Assembly: GCA_963770895.1 (NCBI GenBank)
Contig: CAVYRF010000002.1
Coordinates: 192,001 to 256,000 of the forward strand
DNA from: an uncultured Acidobacteriota bacterium
GTDB taxonomy: Bacteria; Acidobacteriota; Thermoanaerobaculia; Multivoradales; UBA5704
Direction: 5' to 3'
Length of the DNA stretch: 64,000 nt
A model generated the notes under the pieces. It was given only the letters and a program-made list of their open reading frames with translations. It made no database searches and was not told where the DNA came from. Shown here piece after piece: positions 41,280-63,200 of this stretch (its first letter is position 1; each line of letters begins with the position of its first letter). The translations under genes and the position numbers were made by a program.

Positions 41280-43734
41280 CCGGCTGGATGCGCGTCGCCT
41301 TCCTGCCGGGAAGCCAGGTCGCGACGAGCACGGTCAGGATGAGGCCCAGGGAGACGCCCACGAAGGTGAGCGGATCGATCGCCGAAACCCCGTACAGCAG
41401 CGACGCCATGACGCGCGTCATGGCGAAGGCCGCGACGATGCCGCACAGCACGCCGGCGCCCGCCAAGCGGCCGGCTTCCAGCACCACCATGCGCAGGACG
41501 CTGCCGCGCTCGGCGCCGAGCGCCATGCGGATACCCAGCTCGCGCGTCCTCTGGGAGATGGAGTACGAGGTGACGCCGTAGATGCCGATGATCGCGAGCA
41601 CCAGGGCCAGGCCGGCGAAGAGGCCGAGCAGCATGACGCTGAAGCGGGGTTTGTCCACCGAGGCGGCGACCATCTGATCGAGGGTGCGGATGCGCGAAAC
41701 CGGCTGGCTTGGGTCCACCTCGTGCACGGCGGCGCGCACTTCCGGGATCACGGACAGGGGGTCGCCCGCGGTGTGCATGACGATGCGCATCAGGAAGCCG
41801 ACCAGAACGGGGGTCTGCGACGGCACCATGTACATTTGCGATTGCAGGTCGCCCAGCAGGCCTGCCTCGCGAACGCTGCCCACCACTCCGACGATGGTGT
41901 AGTGATAGGCGGCCTTCTTGCCCAGCAGGAGACGCTTGCCGATGGGATCTTCGCCCGCCAGGTAGGTGCGGGCCATGGTTTCGTCGATCAGCGCCACCTT
42001 CTGCGAGTCCGCCGTGTCGGAGGCGGTGAAGAACCTGCCGCGCAGCAGCGGGATCCCCATCATCTCGAAGTAGCCGGGAGCCGCCGAGCGCTGCAGCGCC
42101 TGCTGGCCGACGGCCTGGTCCGGCACCGCGGTCTTCGGTGCCTCTCCTTCGATGGTGAAGCCTCGGAATCCCCCATCGCCGTCCATCGGCAGGTCGGAGG
42201 TGACGGCGGCGGCGGTGATGCCGGGCAGCACCCGCAGCTTGTCCACGACGCGCTGGAGAAACGGCAGCCGCTGCGCCATCGGATAGCGGTCCGTCGGCAT
42301 GGCGAACTCGATGGTGAGCAGGTGCGCGGGGCGGAAGCCGGGGTTGACGTCCAGCAGGTGGATGAAGCTGCGCATCAGCAGGCCGGCGCCGATCAGCAGC
42401 AGCGTCGCCAACGCGACCTCCGCCGCCACCAGGACGTTGCGCATGCGGTGGCTTGCCGCCGTGCCGGCGCCGGCGCGCGTGCCCTCGCGCAGCGATCCGG
42501 CCAGGTCCTGGCGAGTCAGCTGCAGAGCGGGAGCCAGGCCGGCCAGCAAGCTTGCCACGAGGCAGAGAGCGGCGGTGAAGACGATCGCCCGGGCGTTCAG
42601 CGAGAAGCCGCCGACGACCGCCAGGCCGACTGGAATGGAGGCTGAAAAGGTGCGCAGGGCGACCTCGGCGAAGACGACGCCGAGCGCTCCGCCCAGGAGC
42701 GCCAGCAGCCCGCTTTCGGTCAGCAGCTGGGAGATCAGCTGGCCGCGGCTTGCCCCCATCGCCATGCGCACGGCGATCTCCTTCTGGCGCGACGCGGCGC
42801 GGGCAAGCAGCAGGTTGGCGACGTTGGCGCAGGCGATCAGCAGCACCAATCCGACCGCCGCCCAGAGCACGATGAGCGCGGTGCGCAGGTGGCCCCGCAT
42901 CTGCTCGAGCAAGGGCTGGAGGCTGACGGTCCAGCCGCCGTCCGTCTTGGGGTAGAGAGCGGCCAGCTGCGCGCAGTGGGCCTTGAGCTCCGCCTCCGCC
43001 GCCGCCATCGTCACGCCCGGACGCAGGCGCCCGATCACCACGTCGTAACGGGTGTCGCGGTCCTGCCTGGCATCGGCGGTGAGCGAAGTCGGCGCCCAGA
43101 CGTCGGTCTCCGGCGTGAAGCCATACGGGCCGGGGATCTCGAAGCCGCCGAGCGGGAAGGTGAAGCGCGGCGGCATCACCCCCACCACGGTGTAGGGATT
43201 GCCGCCCAGGTTGATGACCCGGCCGATGACGCCGCGATCGCTGCCGAAGCGGTGCTGCCAGAGCGCGTACGAAAGCACCGCCGTGTTGGGCTTGCCGAAG
43301 TTGTCGTCGCCGGGATCGATGGTGCGGCCCAGGGCGGCGGACGCGCCGAGCACGCTGAAGAAGCCGCCGGTGACGCGGGTGACGCCGAGCTCCACGGGCT
43401 CACCCTGGCCGGTCAGGGCCTGGCGGTCGGACTGCATCATGCCCAGGCGTTCGAAAGAGCGGCTGTCCTGCTGAAAGTCATAGAACAGGGCGTCGGAGGC
43501 CGGCCCCTTCACCCCCAGGCCTTCGGTGCCCGGCAACGTCGAATTGGCAGCCCAGACGATCACCAGCCGGGCAGGATCGCGGAACGGCGGCGGGGTAATC
43601 AGGGTCGCGTCGACGATGCTGAAAATCGCCGAGTTGGCGCCGACGCCCAGGGCCAAGGTGAGAATGGCGGCGAATGCAAGTTCCTGCCGCAGGTTGCGAA
43701 CGGCGAGACGCAGGTTATGGACAAATTGGCTCAT
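41257..43734 (-). CDS. ADOP-family duplicated permease
   Basis: LTLALGVGANSAIFSIV, LLIACANVANLLLARA..RQKEIAVR.A.GA, QRTRELGIRMALGA, LPGRKATRIQP..ALR. Confidence 0.93.
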   Translation of the reverse strand: MSQFVHNLRLAVRNLRQELAFAAILTLALGVGANSAIFSIVDATLITPPPFRDPARLVIVWAANSTLPGTEGLGVKGPASDALFYDFQQDSRSFERLGMMQSDRQALTGQGEPVELGVTRVTGGFFSVLGASAALGRTIDPGDDNFGKPNTAVLSYALWQHRFGSDRGVIGRVINLGGNPYTVVGVMPPRFTFPLGGFEIPGPYGFTPETDVWAPTSLTADARQDRDTRYDVVIGRLRPGVTMAAAEAELKAHCAQLAALYPKTDGGWTVSLQPLLEQMRGHLRTALIVLWAAVGLVLLIACANVANLLLARAASRQKEIAVRMAMGASRGQLISQLLTESGLLALLGGALGVVFAEVALRTFSASIPVGLAVVGGFSLNARAIVFTAALCLVASLLAGLAPALQLTRQDLAGSLREGTRAGAGTAASHRMRNVLVAAEVALATLLLIGAGLLMRSFIHLLDVNPGFRPAHLLTIEFAMPTDRYPMAQRLPFLQRVVDKLRVLPGITAAAVTSDLPMDGDGGFRGFTIEGEAPKTAVPDQAVGQQALQRSAAPGYFEMMGIPLLRGRFFTASDTADSQKVALIDETMARTYLAGEDPIGKRLLLGKKAAYHYTIVGVVGSVREAGLLGDLQSQMYMVPSQTPVLVGFLMRIVMHTAGDPLSVIPEVRAAVHEVDPSQPVSRIRTLDQMVAASVDKPRFSVMLLGLFAGLALVLAIIGIYGVTSYSISQRTRELGIRMALGAERGSVLRMVVLEAGRLAGAGVLCGIVAAFAMTRVMASLLYGVSAIDPLTFVGVSLGLILTVLVATWLPGRKATRIQPVTALRID

Positions 43735-43920
43735 GGCTTCGGGCCGCGTGGCAGCCGCTATCCTCCGATGTCCTCCGGCAATCCTGGGACTGGATTTGAT
43801 CACCTGAAAACTGCCGCAGGCTATCATGATACATCGCTCTGTGAAGGCCGCAGGACATTGAATTCAGGGGTCTTTGTGGGATAGTATTTGCACTCTCAAT
43901 CGCCAAGGAGAACCCTGCTC

Positions 43921-45246
43921 TTGGAACCCTTCGATACGCTCGAATCCGAGGTCCGTTCGTACTGCCGGCTGTTCCCGTCCGTGTTCGAGCGGGCCGTCGG
44001 CTCCCACCTTTTCGACGAATCCGGAAAGGATTATATCGACTTCTTCAGCGGTGCGGGAACGCTCAATTACGGACATAACAACCCGGTTCTCAAAGAACAC
44101 CTTATTGACTACATTCGCCGCGACGGCATCGCCCATGCGCTCGACATGGCGACGACCGCCAAGCGGGCGCTGCTCGATCGGTTCCAGCGGGTGATCCTCG
44201 AGCCGCGGGGGTTGCGCTACAAGGTCCAGTTCCCCGGTCCCACCGGAACCAACGCCGTCGAGGCCGCGCTGAAGCTGGCGCGCAAGGTGACGGGCCGCAC
44301 GCACGTGCTCTATTTCAACAACGCCTATCACGGGTTGACGCTGGGGGCGCTGGCCGTCACCGGCAGCACCTCGAAACGCCGGGCCGCAGGCGTACCGCTG
44401 CCGAACACCACCCCGCTGCCCTTCGACGGCGACCTGGGAGAGCAGGATACGGTCGAGTACCTGCGGGGCCTGCTGGAAAACCCGTCGAGCGGCATCGATC
44501 TCCCCGCCGCGGTCATCGTCGAGACCGTGCAGGCGGAGGGCGGTGTCCGCGCAGCCGGCTTCGACTGGCTGCAGCGGCTCGCCGCGCTCCTGCAGCGGCA
44601 CGGCATCCTGCTGATCGTGGACGACATCCAGGTGGGGTGCGGGCGCACCGGCACGTTCTTCAGCTTCGAGCCCGCCGGCGTGGTTCCTGACATCGTCTGC
44701 CTGTCCAAATCCATCAGCGGCTTCGGCCTCCCCATGGCCCTTGTCCTGCTGCGTCCCGAGCTGGACGTCTGGAAGCCGGGGGAGCACACCGGGACGTTTC
44801 GCGGCAACAACCTGGCGTTCGTCACGGCCGCGGCGGCCCTCGACTACTGGCAGGACGACTCCTTCAGCCGCGACGTCCTCCGCAAGGCGGGCCTCCTGCG
44901 CCGCCGGTTGGAGGAGATCACCGCGCGCCACTCCGACATCTGCGGGCCGGTGCGCGGCAGGGGCCTCATCCAGGGCCTGGCCCTGGAGGTCGACGGGCTC
45001 GGCACCCAGGTGGCCAGGGGCGCTTTCCAACGCGGGCTGATCATGGAACCGGTGGGCCCCAGGGACGAGGTCCTGAAAATCCTGCCGCCTCTGGTCATCG
45101 AGGATGCCGAGCTGCTGCAGGGGCTGGACATCCTCGCGGAAGCCCTGGCTGAGGCCGTCGAGGCAATCGAAGCCGCCGAGTCGGCCGGCGGCAGCTTGGT
45201 GGAGCGGGGAGCGCGGCAGGCGATCTCGCCCCCGGCCGGCCCTTAG
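43921..45246 (+). CDS. ectB: Diaminobutyrate--2-oxoglutarate transaminase (EctB/Dat-like, class III PLP)
   Basis: TTG start after AAGGAG. ESEVRSYCR.FP, IDFFSGAGTLNYGHN, QFPGPTGTNAVEAALKLARK, IVETVQAEGG, DDIQVGCGRTG.FFSFE, LSKSISG, PGEHTGTFRGNN. Confidence 0.93.
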   Translation: MEPFDTLESEVRSYCRLFPSVFERAVGSHLFDESGKDYIDFFSGAGTLNYGHNNPVLKEHLIDYIRRDGIAHALDMATTAKRALLDRFQRVILEPRGLRYKVQFPGPTGTNAVEAALKLARKVTGRTHVLYFNNAYHGLTLGALAVTGSTSKRRAAGVPLPNTTPLPFDGDLGEQDTVEYLRGLLENPSSGIDLPAAVIVETVQAEGGVRAAGFDWLQRLAALLQRHGILLIVDDIQVGCGRTGTFFSFEPAGVVPDIVCLSKSISGFGLPMALVLLRPELDVWKPGEHTGTFRGNNLAFVTAAAALDYWQDDSFSRDVLRKAGLLRRRLEEITARHSDICGPVRGRGLIQGLALEVDGLGTQVARGAFQRGLIMEPVGPRDEVLKILPPLVIEDAELLQGLDILAEALAEAVEAIEAAESAGGSLVERGARQAISPPAGP

Positions 45247-45253
45247 CCCCACC

Positions 45254-48200
45254 TCAAGGTCCGCCCTCGACGGCGGCCAGAGCCCTAGCCATGTGCTCCG
45301 CCAGTTCGTCGAGGGCCGGCTCCCGCAGCAGGGAGGCATGGTCCGTATTCACCAGCAGGTGCGTTTCGACCGCGCCGGCAAGCTCGTCCCAGCCGCCGAC
45401 CAGGTCCAGGGTACCCGCAGCCATCAGGCCGCCGTCGGCCCGGAACAGAACCAGCCGGCCGCCACAGGGGCGCGGCAGGTAGCTCTCCACAGTGGTCATG
45501 GTGCGGCAGTAGAGATTGAAACGCTCGCGCATCCATGACATTCCGACCTCCGCGGTCAGCACCCCCTCGGCTCGCGCCAGCGCGAGCAAACGGTCGAGCC
45601 CGGCCTCCAGGTCCAGCCCTTCCAGCATCTGGCGGATCGACGCCTGCTGCTCCGGGGCAGGATGCGCCAGGCGCGAGAAACCGAGCAGGAGCTCGCTGTC
45701 GCCGACTCTGCGGATGCACCCGTCCGGAGGCCGCGGTGGGTCGAACATCGTCACCAGCGCCGTACCGCCCATGCTCTCGATCTGCCGCGCCATCTCGAAG
45801 GCCGTGATGGCGCCGGCCGACCAGCCGCCCAACAGCCAGGGTCCCTCGGCCTGGACCGCGCGCACCGTCGCCAGATATTGCGCTGCCAGATCCTCCATCG
45901 AGGGCGGCGGGCCGACGCCCTCGTCGAGCGCCTGCAGGCCGTAGACCGGACGCTTCGCCCCGAGCTTTTTGGCCAGCGGTATGTAGGAAAAGACGTTTCC
46001 TCCCACCGGCGGAGCCAGGAACAGCGGCCTTTCCGCGCCTCCCGGATGCAGACGCACCAGCGGCGCGATGCGCTGCACCTTGCGGCCCTGGATGATTGCC
46101 GCCAGCTGCCCCACCGTCGGCGCCTCGAACAGCGCCGAGATCGGCATCGCGACCCCGAGCACGTGCTGGATGCGCCCCATCACCCGCACCGCCAGCAGCG
46201 AGTGGCCGCCCAGGTCGAAGAAGTTGCTGTTCGCTCCGACCCGTTCGACAGCGAACTGCTCGGCCCAGAGGTCGGCGAGGAACTCTTCGACCGGCGTCCG
46301 CGGCGCCACGAAGCCCTCCGCGGCGCCCGGCTGCCCGGGGGCCGGCAGGGCCTTCCGGTCCACCTTGCCGGTGGGCGTGAGCGGCAGGGCGTCGAGAGTC
46401 ACGAAGGCCGTGGGCACCATCGCGTCCGGCAGCCGCTCGCGCAACGACCGGCGCAGCGTGTCGGCCGCGACGTCCCCCACCAGGTAGGCCACCAGCCGCT
46501 TGTCGCCCGGCCGATCCTCGCGCACGGTCACGACCGCCGCGCGCACTCCCTCCAGCCCGGCCAGCGCCACTTCGATCTCGCCCAGCTCGATGCGGACGCC
46601 GCGGATCTTGACCTGGTGGTCGGTGCGGCCCAGATATTCGACCGCGCCGTCCGGCCGCCGCCGCGCCAGGTCGCCGGTGCGGTAGACCCGCCCACCGGGC
46701 TCGCCCCCCGTGGGGTCGGGCAGGAAGCGCTCGGCCGTGAGGTCGGGGCGATCGACGTAGCCGCGCGCCAGGTTGACGCCGCCGATGAACAGCTCGCCGG
46801 GAACGCCGACCGGCAACGGCGACAGGCCCCGGTCCAGCAGGTGGATCTGGGTGTTGGCAATCGGCCTGCCGATCGGGATGCCGCCGCGCTCCTCCCCTTC
46901 GCCGCAGATCCACCAGGTGACGTCGACCGCGGCCTCGGTGGGGCCGTAGAGGTTGTGCAGGCGGACGTGACCGAAGCGGGCGGCGAAACGCCGCGCCAGC
47001 TCGGGCGACAGGGCCTCACCGCTGCACACCACGTCACGCAGGGTGCGGCACTCCTCCACGCCGGGCTCCTCAAGGAACAGCTGCAGCATCGAGGGCACGA
47101 AATGGAGCACCGTGATGCCCTGGCCGATCACCAGGCTCTTCAAGTAGGCGTTGTCGCGGTGGCCGCCGGGGCGGACCATCACCAGGCGGGCGCCGGTCAT
47201 CAGCGGCCAGAACAGCTCCCAGACCGAAACGTCGAAGCTGAACGGAGTCTTTTGCGCCACCCGGTCGCCGGCGCCCAGGTGCAGGGCGTCCTGCATCCAG
47301 AGCAGGCGGTTGACGATGGCGCGGTGCGAGATCATCGCCCCCTTCGGCCGGCCGGTGGAACCCGAGGTATAGAGCACGTAGGCCGGGCAGTCGGCGGCGA
47401 CGGCCGCACCCGGGCGCAGTTCGCCGGCGACGTCGCCGGCCGGCGGCCCGCCAGGCTCCAGCAGCAGGAGGCGATCCCCTGCGCCCGCCAGGTCGCCGGA
47501 CAGCCGGCCGGCGAGGTCGCGGCGGGTCACGACCCATTGCAGGCGGGCGTCCCGCTCCTGGAAGGCCAGGCGATCGGCCGGGTGATCGGGATCGAGGGGA
47601 ACGTAGGCGGCGCCCGCCTTGAGCACGCCGAGCAGAGCCACCATCAGCTCACAGGAGCGCTCCAGGAAAACGCCGACCCGGCTCTCCGCACCGCACCCGC
47701 GGGCGCGGAGCTGGTGGGCCAGGCGATCAGCCCGCTGGTCCAGCTCGCGATAGCTCAGCTCCTCGCCCTCGAATTCCACCGCCACGGCCAGGGGCGTGCG
47801 CAAGACCTGCTCTTCGATCCAGGCGTGGAGCGGCTTGTCGAGGGGGTACGCGACGGCGGTCTCGTTCCAGGCGCGCAGCTCCGCCGCCTCCGCGGCGGTG
47901 AGCAGGTCCACCTCGTGGACCCGGCGCTCCGGCTCCCCGGCCATGCCGGCCAGCAGCCTCTCCAAGTGCCCGGCCAGGCGGTCGATCGTCGCGGCGTCGA
48001 ACAGGTCGGCGGCGTAGTCGAGCCGGCCGGTCAACGTCCCGTCGTGCTCGCCGAGGCTGAGCGTGAGATCGAATCTGGCCATCGTCTCGGCGCCGCCCAA
48101 TCGCTGCACGCGCAGGTCGCGGATCTGCAGGCTTTCGGCCGGAGCGTTCTGCAGCACGAACATCACCTGGAACAGGGGCGCGTGCGCCAGGCTCCGCCGC

Positions 48201-51200
48201 GGCGAAAGCTCCTCGACCAGCTTTTCGAACGGCACGTCCTGGTGGCGGGAGGCCGCCAGCGCCGTCTTCCGCACCCGCCGCAGCAGCTCACGGAACGACG
48301 GACCGCCCGGCCTATCTCCCGATAGGTCGGCGCGCAGCACGAGCGTATTGACGAAGAACCCGATGAGGTCCTCGACCTCCACCCGGTTGCGTCCGGCGGT
48401 GGGCGAGCCCACGGCCAGGTCGTCCTGTCCGCTGGTGCGCGCCAGCAGGGTCTGGAAGCCGGCCAGGAGCACCATGAACAGGGTCGCGCCCTCGCTCCGG
48501 GCCAAAGCTTCCAGCTGCCGGGTGAGCCCGGCCGGCAGCCGCACCGGCCTGGCACCGCCACGGAAGCTCTGCCGCGCCGGCCGCGGCCGGTCGGTCGGCA
48601 GGTTGAGCAGCGTCGGCAACCCTGCAAGCTCGTGGCGCCAGAAGGCGACCTCCCGCTCCAGGGTCTCGCCGTGTAGCCAGGAGCGCTGCCAGAGCGCGAA
48701 ATCCGAATATTGCACCGGCAGCTCGGGCAGGGGGGACGGCTCGCCCGCGGCAAACGCCGCATACAGGGCGGTGACCTCGCGCACCAGGATTCCCAGCGAC
48801 CAGCCGTCGCTCGCGATGTGGTGCAAGGTCAGCGCGACGGCGTGGTCGCCGGCGGCAAGCCGCAGCAGCGAGCCGCGCAGTAACGGGCCGCGCGCCAGGT
48901 CGAACGGCCGGCCGGCCTCCTGCCGGGCCAGGGTGAGAGCCAATGCCTCGCGCTCCCGCCGCGGCAGGGCGGACAGGTCCACGACCGGCAGCAGGAAGGG
49001 CTGCGCCGGATGCACCACCTGCACGGGCGATTCGTCCGGCGCGGCGAACACCGTGCGCAGTGCCTCGTGGCGGCGCACGATCTCGCCGAGAGTCGCCGCC
49101 AGCACCCGCGGGTCGAGCGGCCCGGCGATCCGCAGGGCCACCGGCAGGTTGTAGAGCGCGCTCCCCGGTTCGAGCTGATCGAGGAACCAGAGGCGCTGCT
49201 GGGCGAACGACAGCGGCCGCGGCTCGCCGCTGCGCCCGCCCCGCGCGATGGCCGCCGGCGGCGCCGGTGGCGGCAGTGCCGGCCGGTCGTAGCCGAGACG
49301 TACGGCCATCTCCCAGGTCGCCACGCCGAGCGAGCCTTCCCGCGCCTCCTCCCGGAAGCGCTCGGCGACTCCCGCCTCGACGCCCTTGTACTGGAGGAAC
49401 TTGACGTCGCCGAGCATTTTTCCCTCAGCATGGATGCCGTCGGTCATCCGCGCCCGTCCCTCCCGGTAGGGATCGATCATGGCGGGATGCAGCTCCACCC
49501 CCAGGGCGGCGCAAAATCGCCGCAGCTCGGCTTCGGGGTGGCGCACCAGGTCTTCGAAACCGACCCGCAGCTGGCGCTCCGCCGGCACGCCGGCCAGGTG
49601 CTCCAGGATGTTTTCGTGGCTCGCCAGCCAGATCAGCTCGGCCAGCTCCGCCCGCTCGAACTGGTGCGGATGGCGGAAGAAAAGCTCGTCCAACTTGACC
49701 TCCTCGAACGAGCGGATCGAGGCGTAGGGGTGGCGGAGCAGGTGGATATAGAAAGGTTTCTCAAACGCCTCCTCGGCCCGCCGCAGCACGGCCAGGTCCA
49801 AAGCGTAGGTGGTCGTCTTGTCGACCAGGGTGCGGCCGCCCAGCCACGCCTGCAGCTGGCGGTAGAACTGCTGCGTCGTCCAGCCCGCGGCGACGGTGGC
49901 GCCGATCGTCTGCCGAGCCTCCTCGACGCTGCATTGGCGCGCCTCCATGACGGCGCGAATCGCCCCTTCCAGCCAGAAGCTGTCGCGGCCGGGGAACGCG
50001 GCTTGGCGTTCGGCCATGGTGTTGAACGACAGCAGCTCGAGCTCCGGCGGCGCGAACAGCCGCGGATGGCCGCCCAACATGACGCGCAGCAGCGTCGAGC
50101 CGGCGCGCGGCGGCGACAGGATGAAGATCGCCGGCGGGTTCTTCGCCGCCGCCAGGTGCGGCCAGGGCGGCAGGGGTGCTATCACCGAGCGGAAGGCGGC
50201 CGACCGCTCCCGGTCGACGCGGCCGGCCGCGCGGCCGCGCGATGGCGGCTCCTGGGCCGCCTCGGCGCCGAGCGAAGCGGCGCCCCACAGGCGGACGACG
50301 GCCTCCCGCTGCTCGCACGCCAGATAGGCCGCCATCTTCGCCACCGTGGGAGCGTCGAACAGGACGACGACGTGGACGACCCCGCCGATCTCCCGTTGCA
50401 GCCGGTTCATCAGGATCGCCCCGGTGATCGAGTTGCCGCCCAGGTCGAAGAAGGAGTCGTGGATGCCGACGCTCGGGACCGCCAGCGCCTGGCGCCAGAG
50501 GCCGGCCAGGTACTCTTCGAGCGGCGTCCGCGGCGCGGCAGGCTCCGTGCCGGCGGCGAGCGCCAGCTCGGGATCGGGCAGCGCCCGGCGATCGACCTTG
50601 CCGTTCGCCGTCCGCGGGAAGGCCGCGATGGGCGCCAGGACCGCCGGGATCATGTAGCTCGGCAGGCGGTCCTGGAGGTGGCGCCGCAGGCTGGCGACCA
50701 GGTCCGGGTCCGGCGCGCCGGGCGCGGTCACCCAGGCGACCATGCGTAGTGCGGTCCCCGTGCCGCGCAGGTCCACCACGGCCTCCTGCACCGCCGGGTG
50801 CGCGGCCAGGGCCACCTCGATCTCCCCCAGCTCGATGCGGAAGCCCCGCACCTTGACCTGGTGATCGATGCGGCCCAGGAACTCGAGCGCGCCCTCCGCC
50901 CGCCAGCGCCCCAGGTCGCCGGTCCGGTAGAGCCGCGCGCCCGCGGCGGCGCCCGCGAACGCAGCAGGCACGAACGCCAGGGCGGTGCGCGCCGGGTCGG
51001 CGAGGTAGCCGCGCCCCACCCCTGCGCCCCCGACGCACAGCTCGCCCGGCACGCCGATCGGCTGCGGCTGGAGGTCCCGGTCGACGACGTAAAGCTGCAT
51101 GTTGGCCACCGCCCGGCCGATCGCCGGGCGCCAGGCCGCCGCGGCCGGCGCCTCCCGCACCAGGCCGATGCTGACGTCGTCGGAGCACTCCGTGGGACCG

Positions 51201-54200
51201 TAGGCGTTGAGCAGCGGGATGCCGGGATGGCGGCCGAACCAGCGCCGGCAGAGCTCCGGCGGTAGCGCCTCGCCGGTGGGGATCAGCCAGCGCAGGTGCG
51301 ACAGGTCGGGGTCGCTCTCGGCTCCCCCGTCGATCATCTCCAGCATCGCCGTGAGCAGCGAGGGGACCAGCTCCAGGACCGTCACCCGGTCGCGCGCCAC
51401 CGCGGCGACGAGCGCCGCCGGGTCGTGGGCGATGGCGTCGGGATAGATGGCGACGCGCCCTCCCGACGCCAGGGCCGACAGCATCTGCCAGACGGAGATG
51501 TCGGAGCTCTGGGAAGAGTTCTGCGCCACCGTGTCGGCGCTGGTGAGGCCCAGCACCGCAATGGTGATGAGGGTGTGGTTGGCCAGACCCCGGTGAGGCA
51601 CCATCGCGCCCTTGGGCAGCCCGGTCGAACCGGAGGTGTAGATGACGTAGGCCAGGTGGTCGAGCCCGGCGCGCACCGGCTGCGGCGCCGCCTCCCCCTC
51701 CAACCGCTCCAGGTCCTCCAGCGCCAGGATCTCCGGCAGCGGCGACGCGGGCGCCGCCGCGAGCAGCGCCGGGCCCAGCCCGGCGCCGGACAGGAGCAGG
51801 CGGGCGCCGCTCTGGCGCAGCACCCCCAGGGCGCGTGCGGCTGGCTGTTGAGGGTCCAGGGGGAGATAGGCGGCGCCGGCCTCCAGCACCGCCAGCACCG
51901 CGGTCAGGAACGGCAGGCCGCGCGGGGCCAGGATCGGCACCACCGATTCGGGGCCCACGCCGCGGCCGACCAGCGCCGCCGCCCAGCGGCGCGAGCGGCT
52001 CAGCAGCTCGCCGTAGGTCAGGCGCTCGTCGCCGCAGACGGCAGCCACCGCCGTAGGCGTCCTCGCCGCCTGCGCCGCGAACAGGTCCTGCAGGCAGAGG
52101 GCCGCCGCGGCATCGCCGGTTTGCGAGTCGTTCCACTCGCAGAGGGTCTGGTGCCTCTCGGCCGCGCCGAGCAGCGGCAGCTCGGAAAGCCGCCTCCCCG
52201 GGTCGGCCAGCGCCGCCGCCAGCAGCGTCGCGAAGCCGCCGCGCAGACGGGCGATGCGCGTGTCGTCGTAGAGATCGCTGTTGTAGCGGAACCGGCAGGA
52301 CAGTTGGCCCGCGACCTCGGTGGCGTTGAGCACCAGGTCGAACTTGGCGGTGGCGGCGCCGGACTCGATCGGCCGGAAGCGCAGGCCGGGCAGCTCCAGC
52401 GGCTCCATGGGGGCGTTCTGCAGCACGAAAAGGACCTGGAAGATCGGCGAATGGCTGAGGTCGCGCTCCGGTGACAGCTCCTCCACCAGCTTCTCGAACG
52501 GCACCTCCTGGTGGGCGTAGGCGCCCAGGGTGACCTCCCGGATCCGCCCCACCAGCTCGCCGAAGGTGGGGTCGCCCGACAGGTCGGCGCGCAGCGCCAG
52601 GGTGTTGAGGAACAGGCCGATCAGCGGCTCGGTCTCGGCGCGGGTGCGGCCGGCGATGGGCGAGCCGACGACGACGTCGTTCTGGCCGCTCAAGCGGGCG
52701 AGCAGGGCGGCGAAGGCGCCGAGCAGGATCATGAACGGCGTCGCGCCGCTCTCCCCCGCCAGGGCCGCGGCACCGCCCAGCGGCAGCTGCTGGAGCTGCG
52801 ACCGGCCGCGAAAGCGCTGCACGGCCGGGCGCGGCCGGTCGGCAGGCAGCGCCAGGAACGGCGGCGCTCCCGCGAGCCTCGCGCGCCACCAGCCGAGCTG
52901 CTCCGTCAGCGTTTGGCCCTGGAGCCGTTGCCGTTGCCAGACGGCGAAATCCGCATACTGCACCGCCAGCTCCGGCAGGGGGGAGGGCCGGCCGGCGGCA
53001 AACGCGGCATAGAGCGCCGCGACCTCGCGCGCCAGAATGCCCATCGACCAGCCGTCGCTGGCGATGTGGTGCACGGCGAGCGCCACGACGTGCTCGCGCT
53101 CCGCCAGGCGCAGCAGGACGCCGCGCAGCAGGCCGGCCGACCGCGATGGCCGGCCGGCACTCGCCGTAGCTCGCGGGCCTGCGGCCAGGTCGAACGGGCG
53201 GCCGGCCTCCTGCGCCGCGAGCGCGGCGGCCAGCGGCTCGCGCTGCGTCGCCGGCAGTCCCGCCAGGTCCACCACCGGCAGCGCAAACGGCGCCGCCGGC
53301 TGGATCACCTGCACCGGCGCGCTCTCCCGCACGGCGAAGACCGTCCGCAACGCCTCGTGGCGGCGCACGATCTCGCCCAGGCAGCGAGCCATCACCGCCG
53401 CCGCCAGCGGCCCCTCGATGCGCAGCAGGATCGGAATGTTGTAGAGCGCGCTGCCCGGTTCCATCTGGTCCAGGAACCACAACCGCTGCTGCGAAAACGA
53501 CAACGGCAGGGGCTGCTCCCGCGGCACCGGCAGGACCGGCGGCGCGGGCGCCGTCGCGCCGGTCCGCTGCGCCGCTTCGACGCGCGCCGCAAGATCCGCC
53601 AACCGCGGCGCCTCGAACAGCGCGCGCACCGGCAGCTCGACACCCAGGACGCTGCGCAGGCGGGACATCACCTGGGTCGCCAGCAGCGAGTGGCCCCCCA
53701 GCTCGAAGAAGTTGTCGGCGGCGGAGGCCCCCCGTTCCAGGCCAAGCAGGTCGCCCCAGATGGCGGCCAGAATCTCTTCGACCGCCGTGCCCGGAGCCAC
53801 CGCAGCGCCCACCGGCTCGGCACGCAGCGCCTCCGGAGCGGGGAGCGCGGCACGGTCCACCTTGCCGTGCACGGTCAGCGGCAGGCGGTCCAGCAGCACC
53901 ACCGCCGAGGGGACCATGTACTCCGGCAGCTCGCCCTGCAGAAAGCGGCGCAGCTCGGGCACCAGGCGCCGCGCCACCTTGTGGCGCAGCGGATCGTTGG
54001 CGTAGACGTGCGCCGGCAGGCCCGTGCGCTGCCCCGGCGGCGCGGGAACGGGTGCCGGCATCGGGACGCCACCAGCGCCGTCGCCGGCGCCGCGCCGGCG
54101 CAGCACCGTGGCAAAACGATGCGGGTTCTGGGGATCCCAGGTCAGGCCGACCGCATAGCCCAACCGCTCGCCGAGCTGCGCCAGCTCCTCGGGGTCGATC

Positions 54201-57200
54201 CCGCTGATCGCAGGGAGCTCAGCCATCGCAGCCAGAGGAGCCATCGCAGGCATCGGAGCCAGCGCCGGCAGCGGCGCCAGCGCCGGCAGCGGCGCCGCGC
54301 GTTGCGCGATCGCCTGCCGCAGCTCCCCCACCGTCCCGGCGTCCTGGTCGAGACCCGCCAGCAGCGCCGCCGCCGCCGCTGCGGTCGCCAGCCGCCGGTT
54401 GGGGATCGCGGTCAAGGCCAGCGCCTGCGGGCGCTCCGCGCCCAATCGCTCGGCCAGGCCGGCAAACGACAGACCCTGCTGCTGCCAATCGAGCCAGTCG
54501 AGGCCGCCTTCCGGCTGCCGCGGCGCCGTGCCGACGTGCAGCACCGCGTCATAGCGGAATCGGCTCAGCTCGTTGTGATGGCGCCCGCGCTTGAGCAGGA
54601 TCTCGACCTGCCGGATCTGCGGCAGGCGCCGCGCCAGGGCAAAGAGGAAGCCGGGATCGATCAGCAGCTCCTCCTCGGTTGCCAGGCGCCGCAGAATGCG
54701 CCGCCGCAGCTCCGCGACCGGCAGATCCGCCGCGGCGCGGTGCAGCTCGACCGAGGTCTGGAACGATTCGCCGAGCGCCAGGCTGCGCAGGTCGCCGAGG
54801 AAGACCCGGCCGCCGGGGGCCACGCTGGCGACCGCCCCCTCCAGGGCGCGGGTGAGATAGTCGATGCCGGGAAAATATTGCGCCACGGAGTTGAGCACCA
54901 CCGTGTCGAAGTCTCCCGGCGACACGCCGCTCCAGTCGTCGGCCTCCCGGCAGGCCAGGGACACCGCCGGCAGACCGCCCATCCGCTCGATCTGCCGGCG
55001 GATCCCCGCCAGCGCCACCGGCGAAAAGTCGGTGCCCTGGTACAGCTCGGCATGGGGAGCCACCCGGAACAGCACCAGACCGGTGCCGCAGCCGACTTCG
55101 AGGATGCGGCGCCCACCCAGGGCGGCCACCCGCGCCACCGTGTGGTCCAGCCACTCGCGCATCTCCTCGGCCGGGATCGGCTCGCCGGTGTAGCTGCTGT
55201 TCCACCCGACGACGTTGAAGGTGGCGTTTTCGATCTCCGGCACCCGCCCGTAGGTCTCGTCGTAGAGGGTCTGCCAGGCGGTGACGTGGTCCGCGTCGGC
55301 GGCGGCCGCAAAGGCGGCCACCTGCCGCGGAGGAGCGATCTCCCCGCTCTCACCGATCGCCGGCAGCTCCGGCAGCTCCGCCAGCTCGGCCAGCTCCGCG
55401 GCCGTACGGCGCACCACGTACGCCACCAGGCGCTTGCCCGACGGGTCTTCCTGCACCACGGCCACCGCGTCGCGCACCTCCGGGTGGCGGCCCAAGGAGC
55501 TTTCCACCTCGCCCAGCTCGATGCGGAAGCCGCGGACCTTGACCTGGTGGTCCAGGCGGCCGAGAAACTCCAGGTTGCCGCCGGCCAGGCGCCGCACGCG
55601 ATCGCCGCTGCGGTAGAACCGCTCACCGCCGCGCACGACATACTTTTCCGCGGTCAGCTCGCCGCGGCCCAGGTAGCCGCGGGTGACGCCCCTGCCGCCG
55701 ATCCACAGCTCGCCCGGCACGCCGATGGGCAGCAGCTCCCCGTCGGCGCCGCGGACGTCCAGCACCGCGCCGGCGAGGGGCCGGCCGAGCAGCGGCCAGG
55801 CCGGCTCGGGAGGCGGCGGCACCGGGTGCGCGGTGCACAGGATGGTGCCTTCGGTCGGCCCGTAGAGCACCCAGATCCGGGCGTCCGGGAAGGTCTCCCG
55901 CATGTCGGCCAGCAGCTCGGCGGGCACCGCGTCGCCGCCGACGAACACCGCCCGCAGCTTCCCGCCGGGCGGGGTGACGCCCGATGCCGCAGCCCCCGCC
56001 GCCAAACGGCGGCGGACCGCATCGACGACCTGCCGCATCAACGCCGGCACGGCGTGCAGGCAGGTCAGCTCCGCGAGGCGATCGACCAGGTGCTCCACGT
56101 CGAGCGCCGGCCGCACCGGGAAGAGCACTGCCGTGCCGCCGCAGAGGAGCGGCGAAAACAGCTCGAACAGGAAGATGTCGAAGGCCGGGCTCGCCAGGCA
56201 CGGCATGCGGTCGTCCGCGGCAAAACCGAACCGGTCCCGCGTGGCGGCGAGAGTGGCCGCCAGCATGCCATGCTCGACCTGCACCGCCTTGGGCCGGCCG
56301 GTCGTGCCGGAGGTGTAGATCAGGTAGGCAAGGCTGTCCGCGGCCGGCAGGTCGAGCGGCGCGCCGCCGTCCGCCGCGTCTTCTTCCCCTGCCCCTTCCT
56401 CTTCCAGCAGGACGGTTCTGCCGCCGTACGGCGGCAGGATCGGCAGCAGGTGCTGCTGGACGACCAGCAGCGGCACCGCCGCGTCCTCCAGCAGAAAGGC
56501 GAGGCGCCCCTGGGGATGGGTGGGGTCCAGCGAGAGCCAGGCGCCGCCGGATTTGAGGATGGCGAGCGCCCCGACCACCAGGTCCAGGGTGCGCTCGACG
56601 CACAGTCCCACCGCCACGCCCGGTCCGGCTCCCAGCGCGCGCAGGCGCCGGGCCAGGCGCTCCGACCGCCGGTCGAGCGCGGCGTAGGTGAGGCTCTCCG
56701 CCTCCCCGCCGGCAGCCGCGGCGAAAGCCACGGCCAGGGCCTGCGGCGCGCGGCGCGCCTGCGCCGCGAAAAGCTCGATCACACCAGGCGCCGCCGGCAC
56801 GAACGTGTCGTTCCACTCGGCCCGCAGCTGGTGGCGCTCGCCGTCCGACAGCCACGGCAGGTCCCGCAGACGCCGGCCGGGATCCGCCGCGCCCGCCGCG
56901 AGGAGCGCCGTCAGGTGGCCGCCCATGCGCAGGATCGTGGCGGCATCGAAGAGATCCGCGGCGAAATCGAGCTGGGCGCCCAGCTCCCCGCCGGCTTCCG
57001 TGAAGGTCAGCCCCAACTCGAACTTCGCCGTCGCCGTCTCCCGCAGCGAGGCGGTGATCGCGAGACCCGCGATGTCGATCCTGGCGACCGGGAAGTTCTG
57101 CAGCGCGAACATCACCTGGAAGAGCGGCGTGTGCGCCAGACTCCTTTCCGGGGCCAGCTCCTCGACCAGCCTTTCGAACGGCACGTCCTGGTGCATGTAG

Positions 57201-60200
57201 GCGGCGAGAGCCGTCTCGCGCACCCGGCCCAGCAGCTCGCGGAACGACGCGTCCGCCGCCAGGCCGCCGCGCAGCACCAGGGTGTTGACGAAGAACCCGA
57301 TCAGGCCTTCGGTCTCCACCCGGTTGCGTCCCGCGACCGGCGAGCCGACCGCGAAGTCGTCCTGGCCGCTGGCGCGCCCCAGCAGGGCCTGGAAGCCGGC
57401 CAGCAGCACCATGAAGACCGTCGCTCCCTCGCGCCGGGCCAGAGCCTCGATCTGCCGCGCCAACCCGGCCGGCAGCGGCACCGGCCGCGAGCCGCCGCGG
57501 AAGCTCTGCACCGCGGGACGCGCACGGTCGGTGGGCAGCTCCAAGACCGGCGGCAGACCGGCGAGCTGCCGGCGCCAGAAGGCGATCTCCTCCGCCAGCA
57601 CATCGCCCGTCAGCCAGGAACGCTGCCAGGCGGCGAAATCCGCGTACTGCACCGTCAGCTCCGGCAACGGCGACGGCCGGCCCGCGGCAAACGCCGCATA
57701 GAGCGTCGTGACCTCGCGCACCAGGATGCCCAGCGACCAGCCGTCGCTCGCGATGTGATGCATGGCGAGCGCCGCCACATGATCGCTCGCCGAAAGCCGC
57801 AGCAACACGCCGCGCAGCAGGCCGGCCGACCGCGGTGGCCGGCCGGCACTCGCCGTATCTCGGGGGTCGCGCGCCAGGTCGAACGGGCGGCCGGCCTGGT
57901 CTCTCACCAGGGCCAGCATCGACGCCTCGCGCGCGCTCTCCGGCAACCCCGAAAGGTCGACCAGCGGCAGCGCGAACGGCGCCGCCGGCTGGATCACCTG
58001 CACCGGCGACCCCTCGTGCGCGGCGAAGACCGTGCGCAGCGCCTCGTGGCGGCGCACGGTTTCGCCCAGGCAACGGGCCAGCACCGCGCGCCCCAGCGGC
58101 CCGGCGATGCGCAGCGCGATGGGGATGTTGTAGAGCGGGCTGCCCGGTTCGAGCTGATCGATGAACCACAGGCGCTGCTGGGCGAACGACAGCGGCAGCG
58201 GCCCTTGCCGCGGGACCTGGGTGATCGGCGCGAGCGGCGGCGCGGGCGCCGTGGCGCCGCTGCGGCGCATCGCCTCGACGCGGATGGCGAGGTCTGCCAG
58301 CCGCGGGGCGATGAACAGGTCGCGCAGCGGCATCTCGATGCCGAAGGCACCGCGCAGCCGCGACGTCACCCGCGTGGCCAGCAGGGAGTGCCCCCCCAGG
58401 GCGAAGAAGTCGTCGGTGGCGCCGACTCTTTCGCGACCGAGCAGCTCCGCCCAGATGCCGGCCAGGACCTCTTCGACCGGCGTCCGCGGCGCCACGTAGC
58501 CTTCCTGGGGGCCCTGCCAGTCCGGTGCCGGCAGCGCCTTCCTGTCCACCTTGCGGTTGGGCGTCAGCGGCAGCTCGGCAAGCAGCGTGAAGGTCGCCGG
58601 CACCATGGAATCCGGCAGCCGCTGGCGCAGGAAGGCGCGCAGGTCCTCGATCGCCAGGCTGACCCCGGGCGCCGGCACCACGTAAGCCGCCAGGAACAGC
58701 TCCGCGCCCTGATCCTGGCGCGCCTGGCGCGTGACGACGACCGCCTCGCGGACGCCCGGAAAGCCGCCCAGCACCGATTCGATCTCCCCCAGCTCGATGC
58801 GGAAGCCCCTGATCTTGACCTGCGTGTCGGCGCGGCCGGCGAACACCGCCTCGCCGTTGGGCAGGTAGCGCCCCAGGTCGCCGGTGCGGTAGAGATCGGC
58901 CACGAAGCGCTCCGCGGTGAGCTGCGGATCCCCCAGGTAGCCCTTGGCGATGTGCGGGCTGCGCACCGCGACCTCGCCCAGCTCGCCGATGCCGGCGAGT
59001 TCACCGGCCGCGGTGAGCACCAGCAGCTGCACGTCCGGAATGCCGCGGCCGAGCGGCAGCACCTCGCGCGGCTCGCTGTCCCCGGCCACGTGGTAGCCCA
59101 CGGCGCGTTGCGTTTCCGTCGAGCCGTAGTAGTTGACGCAGGTCACGTTCGGCGCCAGCGAGCGCAGCCGCGCCACGTCGCGGCGGGTGAGGACGTCGCC
59201 CACCAGGAACGCGTGACGCAGCGACGGGACCTCGACGCGCAGCGCGTCCGGCGCCGCGGTCGTCAGCATCTGTCCCAGGGCGGGCGTGAGATGGGTGATC
59301 GTCACCTGCTCGCGGCGCATCCAGGCGGCGAGCCGGCCGGGCTCGTCCATCGTTTGCGGATCGGGGATCACCACCGCGGCCCCCAGTTGCAGCGGGGTGA
59401 AGACGTCGCGGTGCAGCGGATCGTGCGCCAGGCCCGACAGCAGACTGAAGCGGTCGGCGGCCGACAGCTCGAAGCGGTGGCGGAGCCAGGGGATGAAGTG
59501 CGACAGCGAGCCGTGGCGGCCGACGACGCCCTTGGGCACGCCCGTCGAGCCGGAGGTGAACGCCACGTAGGCGGTGTCGTCAGGCCCCACCTCGACGGCG
59601 GCAGGAGCCGCGGCCAGGTTGGCCAGGTCGGCCAGGCCGGTCAGGAAGCGGGCGCCGTCGGCCCGCGCCGGCAGCGTCAGGCGGCAGGCGCAGCCCGACG
59701 CGTCGAGCGCGCCGTCGATCTCCGCCGGCACCGGGCCGGCCGCCGCGACCCGCAGCCAGGCGGCCGGACGCGCAATCGCGAGCATCTGCGCCTGGCGCGG
59801 CGCCGGGTAGCGCGGATCGAGCATCAGGAAGGCGGCGCCCGCCCGGAGCGCACCCAGGACGCCCCAGACGAGCGGCGCGCTGCGGTGCGCCCAGAAGGCC
59901 ACCGCGTCGCCGCGCCGCACGCCCCGCGCCTGGAGGAACGCCGCCAGCCGGTCGGCCCGCTCGTCCAGCTCGCCATAGGTCCAGGCCTCCGCCGGGTCGG
60001 CCACGGCGAGCGCCGCGGGATCGCGGCGGGCATGGCGGGCGAAGACCTGGTGGACCGCCCCTTCCCAGGCGGCCGACAGCGCCGCTGCCGGATCGGGCAG
60101 GATGGCACGCGCCGCGGCGGTGACCAGCGACAGGCGCTCCACCGGCTCCTCCGGCCGCTCCAGCGCCTGCTCCAGGAAAAGCGGCAGCTGCGCCAGCAGG

Positions 60201-63200
60201 TCCTCCATCCGGGCGGCGTCGAACAGGTCGGCGTTGTAGACCAGGTCGACCTGCACCCCGCCGTCGTCGGCGCCCAGGTAGAACGTCATGTCGAGCTTCG
60301 ACAGGGGGGCCGCCGGCGCCGTCCCCGCCACCTCCATCTCCAGGCCCGGCAGACGCATCCCGGCGGTCGGCACGTTGACCAGGTTGACCATGACCTGAAA
60401 GAGCGCCGTCCGCGACAGGTCGCGCTGCAACGGCAGCGCGGCCAGCACCGCCTCCAGGGGGACGTCCTGGTGCGAATACGCCCCCAGGGTGACCTCCCGC
60501 ACCTGCTCCACCAGGCCGCGGAAGCCGGGCTGGCCGCCGAAGCCGGTGCGCAGGACCAGGGTGTTGAGGAAGCAGCCGATCAGCCCCTCGGTCTCCACGG
60601 CGCGGCGGCCGGCCACCGGCGCGCCCACCAGGATGTCGTCCTGGCCGCTGTGCCGGTGCAGCAGGGTCTGGATCGCGGCGAGCAGCGTCATGAAGAGGGT
60701 CGCGCCGTGGGAGCGGCCGAACCGGGTCAGCCGCCCGCCCAGCTCAGGGGGGAGAGTCCGCGCGGCGCCGCCGCCGCGATAGGTCTGCACCGGCGGACGC
60801 GGCCGGTCGATGGGCAGGTCGAGCGGCGCGAGCTCGCCGCGCAGCAGGTGCAGCCACCAGGCAAGCTCCGTCTGCCGCGTCGCCGCGACCACCTGGCGTT
60901 GCCAGACCGCAAAGTCGGCATACTGCACCGGGAGCTTGCCCAGCCCGGAAGGACGGCGCTCCGAAAACGCACCGTACAGCTCGCCGATCTCGCGCACCAG
61001 CAGGTGCAGCGACCAGCCGTCGCAGATCACGTGGTGCAGCACCAGCAGCAGGTGGTGGCGATCGGGTGCGAGCCGCAGCAGCGCCGCGTCGAACAGCGGC
61101 CCGCGCGCCAGGTCGAAGCGGTGCGCCGCGTGGTCCGCGGCCAGCCGCTCGGCCGCGGCGCGGCGCCCGGCCTCCGGCAGCGCGGCCAGGTCGACCACCG
61201 GCAGCCTGGCCGCGAGCCGCGCCAGGACGTGCTGGCGGGGCTCGCCGTCCACCACCTGGAAGACCGTGCGCAGCACCTCGTGGCGCGCCACCAGGCCCTG
61301 CAACGCCGCGGCGAGCGCGGCCACGTCCAGGCGGCCGGCGAGCCCGACCGCGCTGGGCATGTTGAAGGTGGGCTCACCCGGATCGACGCTGTCGAGGAAC
61401 CACAGGCGTTCCTGGGCGAAGGAGAGCGGCAGCGGCCCCTGCCGCGGCACCGCGACCAGGGGCGGGGCCGCCGTGCTGGCACCGCCGCGCCGCGCCGCCT
61501 CGACCACCGTCGCCAGCTCCGCCACGGTCGGCCGCTCGAACAGTGCCCGCAGCGGCAGCTCGACCCCGAAGGCGCTGCGCAGACGCGACGCCACCCGCGT
61601 CGCCAGCAGCGAATGGCCGCCCAGCTCGAAGAAGTTGCCGTCCACCCCCACCCGTTCCAGGCCCAGCACCTCGGCCCAGATGCCGGCCAGGACCTCCTCG
61701 ACCGGCGTGCGCGGCGCCACGTGGCTCCCTTGGGCGGCCTGCGGCTCGGGCGCCGGCAGCGCCTTGCGGTCCAGCTTGCCGTTGGCCGTCAGCGGCAGCT
61801 CCGGCAGCACCACGATGGCGGACGGCACCATGTGGTCCGGCAGCTTCTCCTGCAGCGACCGGCGCAGCCCCTCGGCGCCGGCGTCGCCGACGACGTACGC
61901 CACCAGCCGCCGGTCGGAGCGCTCCTCGCGCACCACCACCACCGCCTCGCGGACGCCGGGCAAGGTCAGCAGCAGGGCCTCGATCTCGCCGGGCTCGACG
62001 CGGAAACCCCGGATCTTGACCTGGTCGTCGAAACGGCCCAGGAACTCCAGGTCGCCGCTGGCGAGGGTCCGCACCTTGTCGCCGGTCCGGTAGAGCCGCG
62101 CCCCCGGCTGACGGCCGCACGGGTCCGGCACGAACCGCTGGGCCGTCAGGTCGGGCCGCCCCAGGTAGCCGCGCGCCAGGCAGGCGCCGCCCAGGTGGAG
62201 ATCCCCCAGGACGCCGATCGGCGCCGGCACCAGGCCGGGCTCCAGGACGTAGGCCGTGCTGTTGCCGATCGGCCGGCCGATCGACGGATAGACCGCCCAC
62301 GCCGCCGGGTCGGGGGGCATGGTGAAAGCGGTCGCCACGTGCGTCTCGGACGGGCCGTAGTGGTTGTGGAAGGCGCACCCCGGCAGGCGCTCCAGCAAGG
62401 CAGCCATCGCCCGGTTGGTCTGCAGCCGCTCGCCGGTCGTGGTGAGCTCGCGCAACGGTGGCAGATCCTCACGGCCGGCAAAGATCTCCGCCACCTGTTG
62501 CAGCACGACCACCGGCAGGATCGCCTTTTCGATCCGCTGCAGCACAAGCAGCCCGGCCAGCGCCCCCAGGTCGCGGCGCAGCTCCTGCGGCACCACCACC
62601 AGGGTGCCGCCGGAGCCCCAGCAGGCGAACATCTCGTGGAAGCTGGCGTCGAAGGAGAGCGAGGCGTATTGCAGGGTCCGCGCTCCCCCCACGAGAGTCG
62701 CCAGGTGCCAGTCGATCAGGTTGCGCAGCGCCCCCTGGGAGAGGGCCACGCCCTTGGGACGGCCGGTGGAGCCCGAGGTGTAGATCACGTAGCCCAGGTT
62801 CTCGGCCGCGGGCTCGCTGCCATCGCGACGATCGCCGGCGTCCAGCGGGTCCTGCGGGTCCTGCCCGTCCTGGCCGCCTTCCGCTTCTTCGACGTCGATC
62901 AGGACAAGCCGCGCGCTGCCGGCCGGCAGCCGCTGGCGCAGGGGCTCCTGGGTGAGCAGCACCGGCGCGCCGGTGTCGGCGAGCATGAACGCCAAACGCT
63001 CCGCCGGGTGCTCCGCATCGAGCGGCACGTAGGCGCCCCCGGCCTGGAGGATGCCCAGCACGCCCAGGATCATGTCCAGGGAGCGCTCGACCAGCAGGCC
63101 CACCTGGACGTCCGGGCCGACGCCCTCCCGGCGCAGGCGCCGGGCCAGGCGGCTCGCGCGGGCGTTGAGCGCGGCGTAGCTCAGCGCCTGGTTGCCGAAG

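Follow-up and report, generated by a model that had tools for sequence, protein, structure and literature searches.

Sulfamates are rare among natural products, and N-sulfonation defines the monobactam antibiotics. In the sulfazecin pathway, as described in PMC11298585, the separate enzyme SulN sulfonates the 2,3-diaminopropionate (Dap) residue of a tripeptide bound to a peptidyl carrier protein (PCP) in trans, and a Cys thioesterase (TE) then closes the beta-lactam. Sulfotransferase (ST) domains built into assembly lines are known from two other settings. The CurM ST of curacin A biosynthesis (PDB entry 4GBM) and the olefin synthase (OLS) ST of Synechococcus PCC 7002 (4GOX) act on a carrier-tethered substrate just after the carrier, in the order acyl carrier protein-ST-TE of polyketide synthases (PKSs), where a beta-hydroxyl is sulfonated as the leaving group for decarboxylative alkene formation. 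In nonribosomal peptide synthetases (NRPSs), embedded STs have been described in the loading modules of OciA of the cyanopeptolin synthetase (PMC2533009) and of AerB of suomilide/varlaxin biosynthesis (PMC10143770); according to these accounts, a glycerate loaded by an FkbH-type domain is sulfated and the sulfate stays. Here we describe an ST domain in the eighth module of an NRPS from an uncultured Acidobacteriota bacterium, encoded in a stretch of 64,000 nucleotides (contig CAVYRF010000002.1, positions 192,001 to 256,000; from here: the window). This ST follows an adenylation (A) domain that is predicted to activate L-2,4-diaminobutyrate (Dab). Our literature search for STs inside NRPS elongation modules and for nonribosomal sulfotransferases of Acidobacteriota found no study, the embedded STs that we found described belonging to loading modules only.

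We propose that the ST of module 8 would perform an N-sulfonation of carrier-bound Dab dependent on 3'-phosphoadenosine-5'-phosphosulfate (PAPS), a reading that we regard as quite possible, if short of probable. Module 8 of nine would load L-2,4-diaminobutyrate supplied by an adjoining EctB-type transaminase, and the built-in ST would sulfonate the side-chain gamma-amine with PAPS on the carrier domain of the module (T8), probably when Dab is already present as peptidyl-Dab. The condensation (C) domain of the following module, C9, would then hand the peptide, now an N-sulfo compound (a sulfamate), to module 9, with release by the thioesterase at the end. Before condensation the alpha-amine would be excluded as the target, being the nucleophile on which C8 relies. 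Both the accepting atom of the sulfate and the retention of the group in the product are points that we infer from the sequence. If the proposal is correct, the CurM sulfotransferase family would gain a chemistry new to it, N-sulfonation in cis during assembly-line synthesis, and engineered peptides could be tailored with the ST domain as a portable unit. With an amine as the sole side-chain nucleophile of Dab, the module lends itself well to testing this.

The NRPS gene fills the right end of the window (Table 1) and its 5' end is open there, with 6248 aa encoded within the window. In the genome (G000; 8.16 Mb in 3 contigs) the full open reading frame (ORF), G000:C2:237254-270265, encodes nine modules with nine A domains in ~10,960 aa, the probable start being an ATG at C2:270145. 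Pfam searches found repeated Condensation, AMP-binding and PP-binding domains, one methyltransferase inserted in an A domain, a terminal thioesterase and one Sulfotransfer_3 domain. A model that had seen only the letters of the window and a list of its open reading frames (the original prediction) had read the last two modules as C-A-T-ST-C-A-T-TE with the ST in mid-line, and both the Pfam domain calls and the motif map confirmed this order. All motifs that it quoted are present on the reverse strand, namely SDISVWQ (51485-51505), VLELVP (51362-51379), LIPTGE (51269-51286), NAYGPTECSDD (51176-51208), GGNSITG and PPELELL.

The ST matched Sulfotransfer_3 (PF13469) with 95.3 bits (cut-off 27) between PP-binding and Condensation. 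Its description as CurM-like was borne out by matches over the full length of ~290 residues to the OLS ST 4GOX (E 1.4e-56) and the CurM ST 4GBM (E 1.6e-53), the next non-carrier PDB matches being tyrosylprotein sulfotransferases with merely E 3e-4. Its motifs (reverse strand) comprise the SPPRAGST loop (50093-50116), PPELELL (50030-50050), VDKTTTY (49805-49825) and RHPYASIRS (49709-49735). The PRxGST loop, the Glu of PPE, the Lys of VDK and RHPxxxxxS, which we take to be the PAPS-binding and catalytic elements of the CurM ST, are all aligned between the query and 4GBM/4GOX. An APS kinase is encoded 2.8 Mb from the NRPS, and therefore PAPS can be made in this organism.

Two features that the original prediction had singled out turned out to be general. 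Both solved STs indeed read PPELHLL where the query reads PPELELL, the His two after the Glu being replaced by Glu, and this change had been taken as a possible sign of a different acceptor; the same PPELELL occurs in 118 of 120 NRPS-type STs, regardless of the upstream A code. The carrier motif GGNSITG is present as reported, but T8 is not atypical for its place, being a normal ST partner: among 306 carriers directly before an ST none reads GGHSL (GGNSI in 120, GGDSI in 62, GGSSI in 36), compared with GGHSL in 454 of the 560 other carriers. As PPELELL and a non-GGHSL carrier are found in nearly all NRPS-type ST units, they are therefore not markers of the Dab case.

The ten pocket positions of A8, re-extracted by alignment, read DIWEITADDK as previously stated. 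The best PDB match to the pocket stretch was the last A domain of PvdL (E 1.3e-37, 132 bits), and the alignment, which shows FDISVWQ, TVLESVPSL, WMLPTGEA and NAYGPAECSDDV and hence DIWELTADD, supports this code. Nine of the ten code positions are identical between A8 and PvdL, and position 6 is Thr, not Asn. We take the last module of PvdL, which belongs to the pyoverdine chromophore precursor (9LCQ, 9UP2), to load L-Dab; unlike the query module, it is without an ST, and its Dab becomes part of the chromophore by cyclisation. Pyoverdine clusters reportedly carry a dedicated Dab transaminase, PvdH. The second-best PDB match was 9N1U (92 bits), whose entry family is the N-terminal part of SulM-A3, a domain that activates L-Dap (PMC12042044). 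In that description the SulA3 code is Asp-Val-Trp-Glu-Met-Asn-Ala-Asp-Asp (DVWEMNADD) and its two Asp residues bind the side-chain amine of Dap; Asp at code positions 8 and 9 characterizes a 'mode 3' diamino A domain, Glu at position 3 stands for 'mode 1' for diamino acids, and an exchange of Asn for Thr at position 6 gives space for a larger substrate (PMC12042044). Judged by its pocket, A8 is, like the PvdL domain, of the kind that has Thr at position 6 and takes short diamino acids.

The putative source of the substrate is a transaminase gene that sits just past the NRPS stop. Its product reached 620 bits with TIGR02407 (cut-off 552) and 639 bits with NF006733 (cut-off 438), and it is the sole gene of the genome above the TIGR02407 cut-off, the runner-up scoring 199 bits. 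There are no ectoine genes beside it, and a search of its own genome for ectoine synthase gave no match, which carries no weight as the control genomes were equally silent. The Dab transaminase may feed two modules, 2 and 8, because the pocket of module 2 (DVGEVSSID) is near the polymyxin Dab code, DVGEISSIDK as given in PMC12042044. Thus, the earlier assignment of a Dab-type A domain stands, on the PvdL-Dab/SulM-Dap type of pocket and the adjacent Dab transaminase; what had been numbered as A4 is really A8, as the window cuts the gene.

It is quite improbable that A8 takes a substrate other than 2,4-Dab (Dap, a hydroxylated diamino acid or homoserine) and that the ST acts on the corresponding group. 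The same pocket type does activate L-Dap in SulM, and a modest activity of SulA3 mutants with Ser and Thr is described (PMC12042044), but the near-identity to the PvdL pocket with its Thr at position 6 and the EctB-grade transaminase adjoining the NRPS argue for Dab, and no hydroxylase or Dap-synthesis gene was found among 20 neighbouring ORFs. Sulfatases or sulfamidases and PAPS genes were also looked for in these ORFs, and none was found there.

The same arrangement, C-A(D[IV]WEITADD)-T(GGNSI)-ST-C-A-T-TE, is found in three loci (L005-L007) from metagenome-assembled genomes (MAGs) labelled Holophagales and Thermoanaerobaculia, and in L007 an EctB-type gene with 78% identity directly follows the TE. 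Because of the identities of the individual domains in these loci (Table 1), the ST is, as far as sequences tell, constrained at least as much as the core domains. That it is an inactive relic or a mere structural spacer is hardly credible: beyond the replaced His of the CurM/OLS motif nothing positive points to it, and that replacement is shared by the NRPS-type STs at large, the conserved motifs are all present, and no domain is better conserved in the orthologous loci than the ST and T8. The Dab-type code of A8 is constant in the query and five orthologous sequences (L005-L007, P0176 and P0204). The A9 code of the query, DVWHVSLVD, which we take to be Ser-type, differs in two of the three loci reaching A9 (DPWQFGLID in L005 and DPSDIGLIT in L006). 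Action of the ST on the downstream Ser9 was rejected, since A9 varies among the orthologues and the Dab-type A8 is constant.

Compared with the described systems, the query ST shares the Pfam family and the position just after the carrier with the STs of CurM and OLS, but differs from them in the T-ST-C order within an NRPS elongation module, after a diamino acid, in PPELELL instead of PPELHLL and in VDKTT instead of VDKSP. It is not an 'activating' off-loading unit of their kind, having no ketosynthase, acyltransferase or ketoreductase around it and the TE one module further on. With OciA (cyanopeptolin/oscillapeptin) and AerB it has in common that it is NRPS-embedded, with the carrier-ST-C order, and it shares PPELELL with Nostoc loci of their layout; those of OciA and AerB are initiation modules with FkbH-type glycerate loading and a primary hydroxyl as acceptor, whereas the query module is an elongation module, lacks such loading and has only amines as side-chain nucleophiles. 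The comparison with monobactam biosynthesis drawn in the original prediction is apt in that SulN sulfonates PCP-bound Dap in trans (PMC11298585). SulM module 3 together with SulN resembles the query in its diamino-type, mode 3 pocket (DVWEMNADD versus DIWEITADD), and in that PAPS would be used to sulfonate a carrier-bound peptide, and the product of sulfazecin biosynthesis is a sulfamate. In sulfazecin, however, sulfonation falls to a stand-alone enzyme and concerns 2,3-Dap, which SulG and SulH provide, and a Cys thioesterase comes next and closes the beta-lactam; at the query locus the ST stands in cis, Dab supply is of the EctB type, a C domain comes next, the TE is a Ser enzyme (GWSAG), there is no adjoining Cys thioesterase, and no Dap genes were found among the neighbours scanned. 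To judge from its gene content, the locus is not a monobactam line.

To which residue such STs are directed was surveyed in a larger protein set. One search, of proteins longer than the ST domain, gave 1061 matches with E <= 1e-10 among 7998 scored candidates, and a second one, with the A8-T8-ST stretch as query, gave 912 large proteins; of a pooled set of 315 proteins and locus ORFs, 291 held a total of 331 ST domains. The 224 classed A domains that are followed by an ST comprise 74 Thr-type, 70 Ser-type, 22 Tyr-like and 10 mode-3 diamino domains, the remainder reading DGxFxGE (18), DLWHLTLVE (6), DLKNVGSDV (3) or otherwise (21). Among 432 A domains of the same proteins without a following ST there are 31 Thr-type, 41 Ser-type, 8 Tyr-like and 10 mode-3 domains and 342 others. 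Thr, Ser, Tyr-like and mode-3 codes together hence account for 176 of 224 domains with an ST versus 90 of 432 without, an odds ratio of 13.9 that is uncorrected for kinship and comes from a set chosen by likeness to the query. A further 124 A domains were left unclassed as the sequence ended, and domains without a canonical TSGxTGxPK were uncounted. The pattern says that an ST would serve the side chain of the residue of its own module. The side chain of Dab offers only an amine.

A residue next to the conserved Lys sets the query ST apart. Two positions after this Lys, Pro is present in 179 of 192 STs and Thr in ten; CurM and OLS have Pro as well (VDKSP), and the query, with VDKTTTY, has Thr in its place. 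In the larger set, the Thr form accompanies 7 of 10 mode-3 A domains, all 6 domains with the code DLWHLTLVE, 6 of 70 Ser-type domains and 3 reading DIWHVGL[IV]E, and it is absent beside Thr-type (0/74), Tyr-like (0/22) and DGxFxGE (0/18) domains. In elongation modules, every Thr-form ST lies next to an A domain predicted to take a diamino acid, namely the seven of mode 3 and that of L076, a distant ST reading VDKTTTN after an A domain with the code DAEDIGTIV (Glu at position 3, 'mode 1'). In a FastTree tree of 326 ST domains (five domains <240 aa were dropped beforehand), the Thr forms fall into three separate all-Thr groups, whose common ancestor spans 145 leaves, 121 of them with Pro: the protein P0018 alone, the query clade of six (support 0.996) and a 16-member clade of loading modules (support 0.949). 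On this tree, the Pro-to-Thr change arose at least three times. The association of the Thr form with diamino modules is a lead, drawn from small numbers and few lineages.

More tentatively, and as a rather doubtful extension, we suggest that STs with VDK-x-Thr could constitute a carrier-dependent N-sulfotransferase subtype making sulfamates, an in-cis counterpart of SulN. In elongation modules (this locus, P0018 and L076), its members would sulfonate the side chain of Dab or of another diamino acid, and the 16-member loading clade might use a free amine of the first residue. Should this subtype be real, Acidobacteriota would be expected to make N-sulfonated peptides of a class so far hidden. 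The modules of the loading clade (P0004-P0006, P0023, P0130, P0142-P0148, P0154, P0167, P0175, P0182 and P0212), which come from other metagenomes, have the layout A-T-ST-C, with a Thr-form ST and A codes of the kind D[LIV]WH.[STG]L[VI]E. The Pro form is retained where the loading module has a canonical Thr or Ser code.

Several points weigh against N-sulfonation by the module 8 ST. We know of no CurM-family ST that sulfonates nitrogen, and pocket codes predict specificity without proving it. Ten mode-3 A domains of the surveyed proteins do without an ST, three of the ten STs coupled to such domains (P0063, P0140 and P0145) retain the common Pro, and P0010, which at 68% identity has the closest ST outside the orthologues for which the partner A domain is known, pairs a Pro-form ST with a Ser-type A domain. 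Relatedness among the surveyed proteins and their selection for similarity to the query make the counts look more independent than they are. Finally, a hydroxyl that could accept the sulfate is present on the T8-bound chain as well, that of Thr1, as module 1 has the Thr-type code DFWNIGMVHK. The ST might then be an O-sulfotransferase for a hydroxyl elsewhere on this chain, for instance that of Thr1, its place after the Dab module being incidental. The retained Pro of the three Dab-coupled STs would fit this explanation, as would the fact that the characterised relatives all act on hydroxyls, CurM and OLS (as described in PMC3903477) as well as the glycerate loading modules of OciA and AerB. 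We nevertheless consider it unlikely, since STs stand far oftener after hydroxyl-bearing or diamino modules than after others and no orthologue departs from the Dab-type A domain. In P0140, furthermore, the sole A domain before the Dab-ST module reads DAFFLGVTF, which is presumably hydrophobic; if it is, the portion of the chain built by that protein would lack a hydroxyl.

A distinctly unlikely variant is that sulfonation is cryptic or transient: it would keep the gamma-amine of Dab from forming a lactam with its own thioester or direct a cyclisation that comes later, and the group would be lost by the time of release, giving a product without a sulfamate. The 'activating' role of CurM-family STs, in which the sulfate leaves (PMC3903477), the sulfamate nitrogen acting as the ring-forming nucleophile in sulfazecin (PMC11298585) and the relative P0018, in which a TE directly follows a Dab-type A-T-ST, are in line with such a course. 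Conversely, a sulfamate is a poor leaving group in general chemistry, no sulfatase or sulfamidase was among the neighbours scanned, the known embedded NRPS STs give a retained sulfate, and at this locus a C domain, not a TE, comes after the ST. P0018 itself, a metagenome protein of 1546 aa, consists of a Dab-type A domain (DIWEMTADD), a T domain and an ST (VDKTTTY) directly followed by a Ser thioesterase (GWSVG). Its layout is reminiscent of the monobactam end-game with 2,4-Dab in place of Dap, and by this analogy an N-sulfo-gamma-lactam product is conceivable.

N-sulfonation with retention of the group is the leading idea that we infer for module 8, although the layout itself is not unique. 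As far as the sequences go, specific to this locus are the pairing with a diamino module, the dedicated Dab transaminase and the change in the ST that recurs with such modules. The view of the original prediction that a mid-line ST is unusual could not be upheld: embedded STs were already described in OciA and AerB, and the search for T-ST-C found a C domain after 82 of 197 STs of the first pool, compared with a TE after 45, the end of the sequence within 200 aa after 43 and an unclear continuation after 27. Among the 120 matches listed in the first search, nearly all carry NRPS domains, and they come mostly from MAGs named Thermoanaerobaculia, Pyrinomonadaceae or Acidobacteriota. An evenly drawn set of 401 genomes from the phylum contained only 5 with an ST match at E <= 1e-40, and such matches are present in all 3 genomes of the window's own family (3, 3 and 6 copies). 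By these counts, the mid-line T-ST-C arrangement is a recurrent design concentrated in some lineages, and an ST in an elongation module is found in hundreds of proteins of uncultured Acidobacteriota. Nostoc loci have an FkbM-type methyltransferase, a carrier, an ST and a C domain in this order, PPELELL being common to them, with STs 53-56% identical to the query ST.

Embedded STs were observed in further contexts. Two more NRPSs of the same genome carry one, both after Ser-type A domains (G000:C2:5430463-5442699 and G000:C1:1807556-1830364, both on the forward strand), one mid-line (T-ST-C) and one near the C-terminus. Stand-alone single-module C-A-T-ST-TE proteins of ~1700 aa were found in L010, L013, L014, L019 and L031 and in 13 further proteins, from Pyrinomonadaceae MAGs; their pocket, DG[LF][FY]xGE[IV][WY], was seen only in ST-bearing modules. 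In L045 and related Saprospiraceae loci, the ST lies between an NRPS carrier and a PKS ketosynthase (A-T-ST-KS-AT, with KS for ketosynthase and AT for acyltransferase), which is a third context.

Table 1. Features of the 3' part of the NRPS gene and adjoining genes in the 64-kb window, with domain identities between the query and the orthologous loci L005-L007.
Feature	Position in window	Strand	Basis	Identity to query in L005-L007
NRPS gene, 3' 18.7 kb	45254..64000	-	ORF list, Pfam; single gene	
C8, condensation domain of module 8 (HHIASDG)	52166..53518	-	Pfam, motif map	53-80%
A8, adenylation domain, code DIWEITADDK, mode 3 diamino-acid type, predicted L-2,4-diaminobutyrate	50516..52033	-	Alignment	71-82%
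T8, carrier with GGNSI, Ser codon 50429-50431, form typical before ST	50291..50503	-	Motif map	85-89%
ST, CurM/OLS-family PAPS sulfotransferase domain	49280..50155	-	Pfam, PDB match	82-86%
C9, condensation domain of module 9 (HHIASDG), directly after ST	47876..49228	-	Pfam, motif map	68-75%
A9, adenylation domain, code DVWHVSLVDK	46286..47818	-	Alignment; code varies among orthologues	54-74%
T9 carrier (GGHSL) and thioesterase (GWSAG, Ser nucleophile)	45257..46273	-	Pfam, motif map	59-65% (TE)
EctB/Dat-type diaminobutyrate--2-oxoglutarate transaminase, convergent with NRPS	43885..45246	+	TIGR02407	
MacB/FtsX-type permease	41257..43863	-	Neighbour scan	

Other parts of the NRPS show peculiarities of their own. 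In module 7 (window 53867-56182, reverse strand), the methyltransferase is inserted between the A8 and A10 motifs of an A domain with the code DIFHFGLIL, a code that also precedes the Dab module in L005. Module 6 (window 58556-59557, reverse strand) has the unusual pocket DPRHFVYRAK, with HDPLHRD replacing the usual FDxS motif; similar codes presumably occur in aminoadipate-reductase-like A domains. The whole NRPS is without epimerisation domains, and its C domains 2 to 9 all start with LSF[AS]Q[QE]RLWF, which we take to be a start seen in D-donor or dual E/C condensation domains. In the first C domain, GHQLVTEGWS takes the place of HHxxxDG. Upstream of the NRPS start, a 768-aa ORF (G000:C2:270141-272444, reverse strand) comprises a C domain and an internally gapped A domain, without a carrier, and its stop overlaps the region of the NRPS start codon. 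From their sequences, this ORF and the altered first C domain together look like what is left of an initiation module that was lost or rearranged.

A neighbour of the NRPS cluster is a gene for a LanM-like class II lanthipeptide synthetase (DUF4135 and LANC_like, 1129 aa; G000:C2:272814-276200, reverse strand), followed by an M19 dipeptidase. At the other end of the window, positions 3950-12547 (forward strand) encode two TPR-CHAT proteins, a C25-like peptidase and an ORF with an MvdD-type pre-ATP-grasp domain, and may represent a graspetide-like or protease system unconnected with the NRPS. The permease listed in Table 1 may be the exporter of the NRPS product. Altogether, the window contains four genes for MacB/FtsX-type permeases, the others being located at 1327-3876, 19724-22669 and 39084-41276 (forward strand).

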